Below, one piece after another: positions 37,182-41,367 of a DNA stretch of 64,000 bases; position 1 is the first letter of the stretch, and each line of letters starts with the position of its first letter. A program made the translations under genes and the position numbers. A model generated the notes under the pieces. It was not told the DNA's origin. It searched no databases and saw nothing but the letters and a program-made list of their open reading frames with translations. This stretch comes from a virus (Duplodnaviria; Caudoviricetes), in IMG/VR virus record IMGVR_UViG_3300042993_000007, positions 71 to 64,070 of that record; one strand, written 5' to 3'.

Positions 37182-37871
37182 ATGAACGCCCAAGCTCCCG
37201 AACACAAGTCACACCAGCTCGACACCCTCGATGTACACAGCATTTTTCTAACTATCCAAGGTGAAGGCCCGTTTACCGGGTGCCCTGCGGTGTTCGTCCG
37301 GCTAGCCGGGTGCAACCTGCAATGCCCTGGGTGCGACACCGACTACACCAGCAAGCGCGAACGCATGTCGCCCAGTGCCATAGCTGCCAAGGTAATTGAC
37401 CTGAGCGGGCCTGCGGTACTTGTGGTTATCACTGGCGGTGAACCGTTTCGGCAAAACATCGCTGACCTGTGCAAGCGGCTTGTCGGCTTGGCCTACAACG
37501 TGCAAATCGAAACGAACGGTACGCTGCCAATCTCCAGCGCAGTGCCGCTCGACGTCCATGTGGTGTGCAGCCCTAAAACCGGGTCGGTACACAAGTCGAT
37601 CGAGCGCTGGGCAAACCTGTCCTATAAGTACGTGCTGAAGCATGGCGAGGCTAGCCCAGTTGACGGCCTGCCGTTGCTTGCCCTGGGCCACAGCGCTGCA
37701 CCACACCTCGCCAGACCACCGGTAGGCTTTACCGGCAACGTGTACGTCCAGCCAATGGACGAAGGCCATGAAGTGCTCAACTCGTTGAATCTCCTTGCGT
37801 GCATCGAAAGCGTTATGGCTTTCAACTATCGCCTGCAACTGCAAACTCATAAACTTATCGGGGTGGAGTAA
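37182..37871 (+). CDS. queE: 7-carboxy-7-deazaguanine synthase (radical SAM)
   Basis: [37 protein letters not shown]; ATG 37182 with AGGAGG SD. Confidence 0.93.
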
Positions 37872-37872
37872 C

Positions 37873-38673
37873 ATGAAACCGAACACGAAAGCGCTTGTCG
37901 TACTCTCAGGCGGTCAGGATTCGACGACCTGCCTTTTCTGGGCCAAGGCCAACTTCGAGCAAGTGCATGCGGTCACGTTCAACTACGGCCAACGGCACTC
38001 CATTGAAATCCATGCGGCCACCCAGGTGGCGCAAATGGCCAACGTTGCCAGCCACGAGATCATCGACGTCCGTGGCCTGCTGCAATCGACCAGCCCACTG
38101 ACCAGCGATGCGCCGTTGGAGCAGTACGAAAACGCCGAGCAGATGGAAGCCGTTATCGGCAACCGCGTCGAGCTCACATTCGTGCCAATGCGCAACACGC
38201 TGTTCCTAACCATCGCTGCCAACCGGGCCATCGCCCTGGGCTGCCGCCACATCGTCACGGGCATTTGCCAGGAAGACAACGCCAACTATCCTGACTGTAC
38301 CAATATGTTCCGCGGTCGGGTGCAGGACGCTTTTAACGAGTCGCTGTTCGGCACGCGGCATTCGTCCAATGAACTGAAGGTGCTGGCCCCGTTGATCTTC
38401 ATGTCCAAGGCCAAGTCGGTGCATTTCGCCCAAACGTTGCCAGGGTGTATGGATGCCCTGGCGTATAGCCACACCAGCTATGACGGCAAGTACCCGCCAA
38501 CCGACATGAACCATGCCAACGTGCTGCGGGCCAAGGGCTTCGAGGACGCTGGCGTTCCAGACCCACTGGTGGTTCGGGCCTACGTCGAAGGCCGCATGCA
38601 GCTACCGGAAACCGCCAATTACGACACGGTGCGCCACAACCTCGCACATCCACTTTTTAGCATACCGGAGTAA
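37873..38673 (+). CDS. queC: 7-cyano-7-deazaguanine synthase (variant lacking C-terminal Zn cysteines)
   Basis: [31 protein letters not shown]...K. Confidence 0.92.
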
Positions 38674-38675
38674 GG

Positions 38676-39110
38676 ATGGATATCTTCACACACGCAGCCG
38701 TCGGGGCTGCAACCGGGGCAGCCTTCGGGCGCCCGGTGCTGGGTGCCCTGGTGGCAATGCTGCCGGACCTCGGTTACATGCTGCACGCTAACTTCCTGGA
38801 ACGCCTGCGCGTACCGCCCAAGGTGTACGACTTCGGGCACTCGCTGCTGTTCGTGCTGCTGGCCAGCCTGTTGGCCTGGGCGCTGTTCGACGGTGGAACC
38901 GCTGCGGTTGTAGGGCTCGCCCTGCTTTCGCACCTGTGGCTGGACATACCGACGCACGGGCCTACCTGGGGCGTTCGGCTGCTGTACCCACTTCAGTGGC
39001 GGTATGGGTGGGGTGTGGAGTGGGAGTTCTTCAATCGTTCTTGGGCCGAAGGTTTCGTGTGGGGGTTGGCATGGCTAGCAATAGTGTATTCAGCAGAAGC
39101 GTTTTACTGA
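38676..39110 (+). CDS. YdjM-like membrane-associated putative metal-dependent hydrolase
   Basis: FTH, LPD, GHSLLF, SHLWLD, THG...LLYP; hydrophobic helices. Confidence 0.7.
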   Translation: MDIFTHAAVGAATGAAFGRPVLGALVAMLPDLGYMLHANFLERLRVPPKVYDFGHSLLFVLLASLLAWALFDGGTAAVVGLALLSHLWLDIPTHGPTWGVRLLYPLQWRYGWGVEWEFFNRSWAEGFVWGLAWLAIVYSAEAFY

Positions 39111-39373
39111 CGGTTCGGCACTGGCTGCCAATCGTAACGTTCTGCCCTGTTAATAAGCTTCCGGACCTGATATACGTGTCAGTGGAGTTCGGTTCGTTCG
39201 CTGAGCTGTATGCCGTGCGCCGTAAGGTTCGCAAGTTGGTTGGCTGGCGTTGCATGTTCATGGAGGATGTTGCGGTGCAGGTAGCCGACGCATTCCCCGA
39301 AGCAAAATGCGTCACTGTGCGCCTTGCGTTCAACAGGCACGTCGTACAAATAGAGGGTGATAGCAATGTATAA
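39071..39373 (+). CDS. QueF-like (QueF-L type) T-fold protein; start uncertain (39071 ATG or about 39107)
   Basis: FCPVNKLPD (Cys/Asp), VSVEF, FMEDVAV (Glu); lacks the E[SL]K[SA]hK NADPH-binding QueF motif. Confidence 0.65.
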   Translation: MASNSVFSRSVLLTVRHWLPIVTFCPVNKLPDLIYVSVEFGSFAELYAVRRKVRKLVGWRCMFMEDVAVQVADAFPEAKCVTVRLAFNRHVVQIEGDSNV

Positions 39374-39815
39374 GTCCACGAAGACATTTGGGCATGAAGT
39401 CGGCCTCAGTTGTTGCTTTCGTCAGTGGCGGGCTGAAAGCCATTGCCAGCTACTGCACGGGTATGCCATTGCAGTGCGGTTTGAATTCAGTGCAGAGGTT
39501 CTTGACTCTCGTAACTGGGTGGTTGACTTCGGTTCGCTTAAGAGCCTTAAGGGTATCTTGGAGGACAACTTTGACCACACAATGCTTGTGGCTGAAGACG
39601 ACCCCTACAAAGACGAGCTCTGCGGATTGGCGGGGCTTGGCGTTGCCAGGGTTATCTTGCTCCCCAAAGTCGGGTGTGAGGCGTTTGCTGAAATGATTTT
39701 TGAGGTCACGGAACAGTGGTTGGTTGACGCTGGCTACGGTAACCGTGTCTGGCTTGAATCCGTGGAAGTACGTGAGCACGGTGCCAACAGTGCAATCTTT
39801 ACAGGAGCTGAGTAA
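39366..39815 (+). CDS. queD: 6-carboxy-tetrahydropterin synthase
   Basis: [27 protein letters not shown]. Confidence 0.9.
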
Positions 39816-40435
39816 TGAGTAAGCCTGAAGACTGGCAAAGCTGTGACCCTGTGTTGGCACCGTCTGCGGATGCAATGTCCAAGGCGTTTGCAGAGGAGGA
39901 CGTCATTGAGAGCCTGCTGCACATCATTGGTGAAAATCCTGAGCGCGGTGGGCTGATTGAAACTCCTGCTCGTGTGGTTAAAGCCTGGAAATACTGGTGC
40001 GGTGGGTACAACGAGGACATTGAAAGTCTGCTCAAGGTGTTTGAGGACGGCGGGGAAAACTACGATCAGATGGTCACCGTGCGGAACATCCCGTTTTACA
40101 GCCACTGTGAGCATCACCTTGCACCGTTCTTTGGTACGGCTACCGTTGCCTACATCCCGGACGGGCGCATCGTTGGGCTGAGCAAGGTTTCCAGGCTGGT
40201 GGACATCTTCGCTCGCCGCTTGCAAGTGCAGGAGCGACTCACGGCTCAGATCGCTGACGCCATGGAGCTGCACCTGGGCGCGAAGGGTGTAGGGGTGTGC
40301 ATACGGGCGCGGCACCTGTGTATGGAAAGCCGGGGCATTTGCCAGCAAGGCCACCACACCGAAACGACCGCGTTGCGTGGCGTCATTTACAGCGACGCCC
40401 AGGCACGCGCTGAGTTTCTGCGTCGGGCGGAGTAA
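39815..40435 (+). CDS. folE: GTP cyclohydrolase I
   Basis: [38 protein letters not shown]. Confidence 0.96.
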
Positions 40436-40440
40436 CGACG

Positions 40441-41367
40441 ATGGGCCTGCATGTCTACCTCGCTGCGGTGTACACGAACAACTATATGCAGGGTCAGAAG
40501 TTGTATGAGGCTCTGACTGACACAGAAAAGGAAATAACTCACAACTTGCCGCACATCCTGGAGTCGTGGCACTACGTTGGGAAACAGCGTTACGTCGACG
40601 ACATGCGGCGTAACGCGGCTCGCATATTCCTCGACTCCGGAGCGTTCTCTGCGTACACCCTGGGCGTTGAGCTTAGCGTCGCTGAGTACTGCGAGTACAT
40701 CCAGCGCAACATGGATATCATACGGGTTGAAGACGGGTCAGTTATGGCTTCGGTATTGGACGGCATCGGTGACCCGTTGCAGACCTACCGGAACCAGCTG
40801 GAAATGGAACAGCGTGGGGTGCGGCCTTTACCGTGCTTCCACGCCGGGGAGGATGAGCGGTACCTGGAGTGGTATATCCAGAACTACGAATACATCACCC
40901 TCGGTGGCATGGTTGGCACCAGCACGAAGCAGCTCATGGTCTGGCTGGACCGGGTGTGGGGCAAGTACCTCACTGACGGTGCAGGGCGGGCGAAGATCAA
41001 GGTGCATGGCTTCGGTATTACGTCGACGCCAATCATGGAGCGTTACCCCTGGTATAGCTGTGACTCATCCTCCTGGATTCAGTCAACGTCGTTCGGTGTT
41101 ATCGTTACGCCGCAGTTTGGCCCGCTGTCCATTTCAGACAAGTCCCCCAGCCGCCACGACGCTGGGCAACACATCAGCACACTGACACCAATTGAACAGG
41201 AGGTCGTGTTTCAACACCTGGAGTCCATTGGCTTTACCTACGAGCGGCTGTCAACAATTTACCAGTCTCGTGCGGCGTACAACCTGTGGGCGTATGGCAT
41301 GATTAACGCACTGATCAACGCAAGCAAAGACGACGTTTTCCGTAACCGAGTGCAGGAGTTATTCTGA
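40441..41367 (+). CDS. dpdA: TGT-like 7-deazaguanine DNA transglycosylase (DpdA family)
   Basis: FLDSGAFS, VLD, PCFH, LGG, HGFG, SCDSSSW; in operon with preQ0 genes. Confidence 0.8.
   Translation: MGLHVYLAAVYTNNYMQGQKLYEALTDTEKEITHNLPHILESWHYVGKQRYVDDMRRNAARIFLDSGAFSAYTLGVELSVAEYCEYIQRNMDIIRVEDGSVMASVLDGIGDPLQTYRNQLEMEQRGVRPLPCFHAGEDERYLEWYIQNYEYITLGGMVGTSTKQLMVWLDRVWGKYLTDGAGRAKIKVHGFGITSTPIMERYPWYSCDSSSWIQSTSFGVIVTPQFGPLSISDKSPSRHDAGQHISTLTPIEQEVVFQHLESIGFTYERLSTIYQSRAAYNLWAYGMINALINASKDDVFRNRVQELF

Follow-up and report, generated by a model that had tools for sequence, protein, structure and literature searches.

The window, by which we mean the whole stretch of 64,000 nucleotides analyzed here, covers essentially the whole of a 64-kb virus record which is rated complete. 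It contains an operon whose genes abut or overlap and are arranged in the order queE, a queC without glutamine amidotransferase (Gat) domain, a YdjM-like gene, the T-fold gene with which we are concerned, queD, folE, dpdA, a sliding clamp gene and a DNA polymerase gene. The parts of the operon which are discussed in the following are located as listed here.

37182..37871, + strand: queE (radical SAM), start approximate
37873..38673, + strand: queC (PF06508, TIGR00364), lacking both a glutamine amidotransferase domain and the Cys cluster at the C-terminus (alignment A4)
38676..39110, + strand: gene of a YdjM-like membrane metallohydrolase of 144 aa (PF04307, E 1.5e-13), overlapping the start of the T-fold gene by 40 nt
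39061..39065, + strand: Shine–Dalgarno-like run GGGGG, 5 nt 5′ of the ATG at 39071, as read from the sequence
39071..39373, + strand: QueF-L-like T-fold gene coding for 100 aa, with an ATG start and a TAA stop at 39371-39373
39366..39815, + strand: queD (PF01242), the likely ATG at 39366 overlapping the stop of the T-fold gene (ATGTATAA)
39815..40435, + strand: folE (GTP cyclohydrolase I; PF01227, E 1e-67)
40441..41367, + strand: dpdA (DNA 7-deazaguanine transglycosylase; phrog_887, E 1e-88)

For queD the ATG at 39366, which is preceded by GAGGGTG, is a likelier start than the alternative GTG at 39357 given in the ORF list. The dpdA gene is 75–79% identical on the nucleotide level to the dpdA genes of Nipunavirus-like Pseudomonas, Xanthomonas and Variovorax phages (megablast). 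A Gat domain was not found anywhere in the genome of the window phage. The Zn-binding Cys cluster (SCY...CxxCxxC) is gone from its QueC protein as well as from the QueC proteins of Sphingomonas phage vB_StuS_MMDA13 (MMDA13) and of the loci L001, L003 and L004. Instead, the cluster-less proteins of the window, L001, L003 and L004 have a conserved extension PDPLV.RA..EG.M.LP. The idea that a Zn-less QueC explains the presence of the T-fold gene was rejected, since L006 has the YdjM-like and the T-fold genes and its QueC nevertheless keeps the Cys cluster. As the QueC protein of the window phage has no Zn-binding Cys cluster, the formation of the nitrile in this phage is an assumption.

At the position of the T-fold gene the six-frame ORF list holds a longer ORF which starts with GTG and codes for 145 aa (38936..39373, + strand). 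The strings VTFCPVNKLPDLIYVSVEF, FMEDVAVQV and VTVRL are all inside this ORF. A preliminary description of the region had considered the ORF to be mis-started and to hide a shorter gene, and this is borne out, as the 100-aa product obtained from the in-frame ATG at 39071 matches the homologues in length and N-terminus. When 5.8 billion proteins were searched, 117 homologues of the T-fold protein were found. Since these are mostly 86–110 aa long and several of them have the same N-terminus MA(S/N)D... (MASD.., MAND..) as the window protein, 39071 is the supported start and the ORF from the GTG at 38936 a mis-start. The first 45 codons of the longer ORF overlap the YdjM-like gene in another frame. 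On related contigs the short gene had already been called separately by gene callers; it is therefore hidden only under a longest-ORF rule. The gene is real, far beyond chance, as more than 100 metagenomic sequences conserve the protein with its invariant Cys, Pro, Arg and Glu residues. One protein of 242 aa (P0160) consists of an N-terminal T-fold half (to ...LWWKE) followed by ~165 unrelated Arg/Ala-rich residues and is probably a frameshift or assembly artefact and not a real fusion. The median pI of the T-fold family is 8.9, which fits nucleic-acid binding, and thus also a basic surface such as that of the tightly wound QueF-L homodecamer, but proves nothing.

Neither the T-fold protein nor its close family has a match in Pfam, PHROGs, NCBIfam or among the PDB sequences. 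In Pfam, with the QueF family PF14489 included, the result was also negative for the 50 sequences that make up alignment A1, and one distant member of the family reaches an E value of 0.048 against PF14489. A profile search for the family in 1.84 billion representative proteins yielded no more than 81 clusters. The family was widened by distant members from this search to alignment A3, comprising 41 diverse sequences. It is only with the widened alignment that homology to QueF-L becomes visible, the searches with the single sequence and with the close family being empty. Compared with 177,635 distinct PDB sequences the A3 profile has QueF-L as its only significant match (E 1.5e-4), the E value of QueF being 1.

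Using the 78 QueF-L residues of this match we gathered a set of archaeal QueF-L sequences, with which A3 was aligned by hhalign at a probability of 95–96% (E 5e-8 and 6e-9). The probability dropped to 40–69% with unimodular QueF, to 3.8% with FolE and to 0.1% with QueD. To provide a scale, archaeal QueF-L and QueF are aligned with each other at 62–76%, and because this value is below that of A3 and QueF-L, the distance of the phage family to QueF-L is smaller than that between QueF-L and QueF. An earlier hhalign run against the single QueF sequence of phage Dp-1 gave the right register at a probability of 1.7%; one sequence is uninformative in such a comparison and was later replaced by profiles. 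The similarity to QueF-L put forward in the preliminary description thus proved to be specific to archaeal QueF-L, and not to QueF, FolE or QueD, both in the PDB search with A3 and in hhalign. We consider it very probable that the T-fold family is homologous to archaeal QueF-L.

The fold was analyzed with an AlphaFold2 model of the monomer, built from a 50-sequence alignment. The model has a pLDDT of 91.5 and the topology beta-beta-beta-alpha-alpha-beta-beta, that is the T-fold core with one extra N-terminal strand. The protein is a unimodular T-fold within the ~100–110 residues expected of QueF-L; the archaeal QueF-L of P. calidifontis (5JYX, 5K0P) is likewise a unimodular T-fold of ~100–110 aa. 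When the model was compared with the PDB by Foldseek, the ten best matches were all QueF-L chains of P. calidifontis (5jyx, 5k0p), with E values of 5.5e-5 to 2.4e-4 and an identity of only 21–23%, followed by PTPS/QueD, GTP cyclohydrolase I and QueF. The T-fold which had been proposed for this gene is therefore predicted by the model, and QueF-L is its best solved match. QueF-L was also at the top in VIA-align with a Z score of 11.9. Other T-folds, among them FolE, DHNA and PTPS, reach Z scores of 10–11 in this comparison, so that the fold alone does not separate them from QueF-L, and we did not base the QueF-L assignment on the rank of the fold.

We then assigned the residues that are relevant for a comparison with the known enzymes.

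39119..39124, + strand: His17-Trp18, invariant throughout the close family, a feature of the phage lineage with no equivalent in archaeal QueF-L (alignments A1, A3 and A6)
39143..39145, + strand: Cys25, invariant, predicted thioimide nucleophile, aligned with Cys21 of QueF-L and Cys55 of B. subtilis QueF
39164..39166, + strand: Asp32, seven residues past Cys25, aligned with Asp28 of QueF-L (general acid/base)
39203..39226, + strand: ELYAVRRK, aligned to the NADPH motif of QueF in the hhalign register, the motif not being kept; Arg50 invariant
39260..39265, + strand: Met64-Glu65 (FMED), Glu65 invariant and aligned with Glu63 of QueF-L, Met64 at the position of the HE-motif His

Among the 41 sequences of A3 the residues Pro20, Cys25, Pro26, Arg50 and Glu65 are invariant, and His17, Trp18, Thr23 and Asp32 nearly so. 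The role of Cys21 of QueF-L and Cys55 of QueF in thioimide formation is established, as is that of Asp28 as general acid/base (PMC5485725). The preliminary description had aligned the catalytic Cys and Asp and the substrate-binding Glu with the help of two comparison sequences. Both of these are correct, namely SLCPKTGQPD...FHED for B. subtilis QueF and the archaeal string, which in P. calidifontis QueF-L reads VCPISKTVD..EVSVEY..LHEELAV, and the alignment itself holds, as Cys25, Asp32 and Glu65 fall on Cys21, Asp28 and Glu63 of QueF-L. Archaeal QueF-L and the phage protein accordingly have the Cys-x6-Asp and the Glu in register, and both are without the NADPH motif. We consider thioimide chemistry on preQ0 to be a likely activity of the T-fold protein.

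The NADPH motif of QueF is E(S/L)K(S/A)hK(L/Y)(Y/F/W) (PMC10516641). In the hhalign comparison with QueF the residues ELYAVR are in register with ESKSLK, and ELYAVRRK sits on ESKSLKLY. The segment that had been named as the replacement of the motif is thus the aligned one, and the motif is absent from it. This is of importance for the question whether the T-fold protein could be a true QueF-type NADPH-dependent preQ0 reductase, which would form preQ1 or dPreQ1. The bacterial and phage QueF proteins, NADPH-dependent preQ0 reductases (4F8B), belong to the same superfamily and have the Cys, Asp and Glu in the same register as the phage T-fold protein, the hhalign probability against QueF is with 40–69% not zero, and all phage QueF-family proteins tested to date are reductases. 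This includes the proteins of Dp-1 and HVTV-1 which were once called 'QueF-L' by HHpred; they lead to dPreQ1 and keep the NADPH motif (PMC10516641). QueF, however, unlike the phage T-fold protein, possesses the NADPH motif as well as an extension at the N-terminus, makes preQ1 and is a much weaker profile match. With 100 aa the T-fold protein is too short to accommodate the N-terminal region (PF14819 QueF_N) of unimodular QueF (160–175 aa), its similarity to QueF-L is far greater than that to QueF, and it does not have the HE-motif His. A reductase is therefore in our opinion highly improbable.

The phage proteins also differ from archaeal QueF-L. Throughout the T-fold family the position of the HE-motif His, His62 in QueF-L, is occupied by Met (as in the window protein) or another hydrophobic residue. 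The C-terminal tail A-E-S-G-G-x4-Y-I (SGGxxxxYI), which is invariant in 18 archaeal sequences, is missing, and the phage proteins end at or just past the last strand. Moreover, archaeal QueF-L matches the Pfam QueF family whereas the phage family is not recognized by it. These three differences count against our reading of the protein as an archaeosine-forming QueF-L homologue. As one archaeal QueF-L has Gln in place of the His, this residue may not be essential in QueF-L. The significance given to the HE-motif His and to the tail is read from the alignments only. Further differences from archaeal QueF-L are the own invariant His-Trp before the Cys strand, the presumed substrate, which would be DNA and not tRNA, and the YdjM-like membrane partner.

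To examine the genomic surroundings of the family we compiled 29 loci with a T-fold gene (the window, MMDA13, metagenome contigs, IMG/VR contigs and one MAG contig) and scanned them with HMMs. In all 29 loci the T-fold gene adjoins a Gat-less queC and the other preQ0 genes, and this in at least five gene orders and on several phage backbones. A YdjM-like ORF is present in 28 of the loci, and in 27 it is located directly upstream of the T-fold gene or fused to it; in L009 the YdjM-like gene is upstream of queC. No YdjM-like ORF was detected in L025, where the T-fold gene (L025:475-741) is preceded by only 475 nt of contig. The gene order on this contig is dpdA, T-fold, queC, queD, queE, folE.

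MMDA13 is the only carrier of this T-fold gene or of the YdjM-like gene among 50,697 phage records, and it has both. In 185,579 species genomes there was a single match, on a phage-like contig of 57.5 kb binned into a Neisseria MAG. This contig (L032; CAZJFO010000004.1, 'uncultured Neisseria sp.') contains the full array of the phage type, queE-queC-YdjM-Tfold-queD-folE-dpdA-clamp. Probably we are dealing with the genome of a phage, and the MAG gives a hint of a host. The T-fold family is small and is seen almost only on phage contigs.

A natural fusion of the two proteins was found on a metagenome contig of 902 bp (P0191, 211 aa, L008:162-797), with the YdjM-like part preceding the T-fold part. 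The ORF upstream of P0191 matches the FolE HMM. On account of this fusion we argue that the YdjM-like and the T-fold proteins act together, and the YdjM-like protein probably works physically with the T-fold protein. In the YdjM-like proteins His6, Asp31, His55, His86, Asp90 and His94 are invariant, which resembles a set of metal ligands. The model of the YdjM-like protein is a helical membrane protein with a pLDDT of 93.8. Foldseek gave nothing significant for this model against the PDB (E above 1), and the rows to ammonia and urea channels in this search are chance rows which we do not regard as evidence. In a VIA-wide comparison the Z scores were at most 5.1, with phospholipase C rows at 4.1–4.4, and there was no convincing fold match.

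The coupling to a membrane protein could also be explained if the T-fold protein were not an enzyme but served to bind or carry preQ0, buffering it or channelling it to DpdA while being held at the membrane by the YdjM-like partner. With free preQ0, QueF-L forms a stable thioimide that undergoes no turnover (PMC5485725), as would be suitable for a carrier. The Cys/Asp/Glu triad is, however, kept across a divergent family, which argues for catalysis, and the phage makes its own preQ0, so that the need for a carrier is not obvious. We therefore consider this explanation very unlikely.

According to another proposal the thioimide is captured not by ammonia but by a different amine, which the membrane hydrolase sets free or presents, and the product is an N-substituted 7-formamidino-7-deazaguanine. 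This would be in line with the coupling of the two genes in 28 of the 29 loci and the one natural fusion, with the invariant metal-ligand-like His/Asp set of the partner, and with a T-fold family that has its own invariant His17-Trp18 and is without the QueF-L tail. The proposal is purely conjectural, though, with no YdjM-family protein having a known substrate, and archaeal QueF-L accepts only NH4+ (PMC5485725). We judge such an amidine to be unlikely. Put more generally, it is unlikely that the product of the T-fold protein and its partner is a 7-deazaguanine derivative so far undescribed in DNA, e.g., an N-substituted amidine; if true, the two proteins would form a new module for DNA hypermodification which has two components and is associated with the membrane.

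The protein gp33 of MMDA13 belongs to the same family as the window protein (48% identity). The order of the genes in MMDA13, queE-queC-gp34-gp33-queD-folE-dpdA, is the same as in the window. In 2020 gp33 was described as 'putative archaeosine synthase QueF-like protein' with an HHpred probability of 91%, and dG+ was predicted (PMC7472734). The YdjM-like partner, gp34, was left hypothetical in that study, which gives no account of the T-fold family, of the coupling to YdjM or of the fusion.

The backbone of phage NP1 is collinear with the operon of the window phage and comprises queE, Gat-queC (466 aa), queD, folE, dpdA, clamp and polymerase. Neither a YdjM-like gene nor a T-fold gene is present in NP1. 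The dpdA genes of the two phages are ~79% identical on the nucleotide level, but the window QueC is only 28% identical on the protein level to the QueC half of the NP1 Gat-QueC (L031:2173-3573 compared). Judged from these sequences the queC-YdjM-Tfold block has the appearance of a cassette exchanged by horizontal transfer. Because NP1 is collinear, has Gat-queC and is without the YdjM-like and T-fold genes, and because there is no Gat domain in the window genome, we conclude that the block of QueC, YdjM-like protein and T-fold protein replaces Gat-QueC as a module in the lineage of the window phage.

Gat-QueC is the dG+ route of the Queuovirinae 9g, NP1 and Quinobequin. It occupies the same operon slot and has presumably the same end product, dG+. 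Unlike the T-fold protein it is a class-II glutamine amidotransferase fused to QueC, an unrelated protein which obtains the ammonia from glutamine. The phages with Gat-QueC carry dG+, and in Crenarchaeota QueF-L and Gat-QueC replace each other (PMC5485725); archaeal QueF-L and the phage T-fold protein are thus both genomic alternatives to Gat-QueC. Since the block holds the operon slot of Gat-QueC, and since QueF-L and Gat-QueC can substitute for each other in Crenarchaeota, dG+ would be the likeliest product. We rate the chances that dG+ is indeed the product in the phage DNA at about even.

If water resolved the thioimide, perhaps with the help of the YdjM-like hydrolase, the T-fold protein would act like a nitrile hydratase and the product in the DNA would be 7-amido-7-deazaguanine (dADG). 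Up to the nucleophile the thioimide chemistry would be the same. dADG is known in several phages with the enzyme being unidentified, the partner looks like a hydrolase, and the His beside the catalytic Glu is lost, so that the ammonia site may differ. But the enzyme which is replaced by the block at the same operon position, Gat-QueC, is an ammonia-delivering dG+ enzyme, and nothing ties YdjM-like proteins to nitrile or amide chemistry. We consider the formation of dADG to be improbable.

Taken together, we propose with a probability of roughly 0.55 that the phage T-fold protein is a QueF-L homologue which turns preQ0 into archaeosine (dG+) in DNA. FolE, QueD, QueE and QueC would make preQ0, which would be inserted into the DNA by DpdA. 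By homology to QueF-L, Cys25 would attack the nitrile of the DNA-inserted preQ0 and form a covalent thioimide, with Asp32 serving as acid/base and Glu65 holding the deazaguanine. The thioimide would then be resolved by ammonia to the formamidine 2′-deoxyarchaeosine (dG+), ammonia being the likeliest resolver because there is no NADPH site in the T-fold protein. For archaeal QueF-L it has been shown that only the adduct with preQ0-tRNA turns over and that free NH4+ works while Gln and Asn do not; the same study left open whether a partner generates ammonia for the enzyme in vivo (PMC5485725). Possibly the YdjM-like protein supplies ammonia or an amine, tethers the enzyme to the membrane or carries out a separate hydrolytic step. 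This partner has no archaeal counterpart and may change the chemistry, and together with the missing His and tail it could mean that another nucleophile is used, either water, leading to dADG, or another amine.

So far three routes to archaeosine are known, by ArcS, by Gat-QueC and by QueF-L. In the literature covered here the phages for which dG+ was measured encode Gat-QueC or ArcS. In a survey of phage deazaguanines from 2023 no phage QueF-family protein aligned with QueF-L (PMC10516641). The QueF-L reading of the T-fold family is not new, having been published for gp33 of MMDA13 in 2020. What is new is that the homology to QueF-L has statistical support and that the T-fold proteins are delimited as a small family which is almost confined to phage contigs, has a signature of its own and is without the His and the tail of QueF-L. 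Also new are the coupling to a YdjM-like membrane hydrolase, which is nearly obligate and includes one fusion, and the exchange of the module with Gat-QueC. A paper linking YdjM to deazaguanines was not found in our literature search.

The T-fold family would be the first credible QueF-L lineage of phages and also the first case of a T-fold enzyme with DNA as its presumed substrate. It is a testable candidate for the way in which the anti-restriction base is completed in those phages of this group that have no Gat domain, and with MMDA13 there is a cultured phage which carries the pair of T-fold and YdjM-like genes. The coupling to the T-fold gene is also the first functional handle on the uncharacterised family of YdjM membrane hydrolases, and it echoes the question raised for archaeal QueF-L whether a partner protein supplies the ammonia in vivo (PMC5485725).
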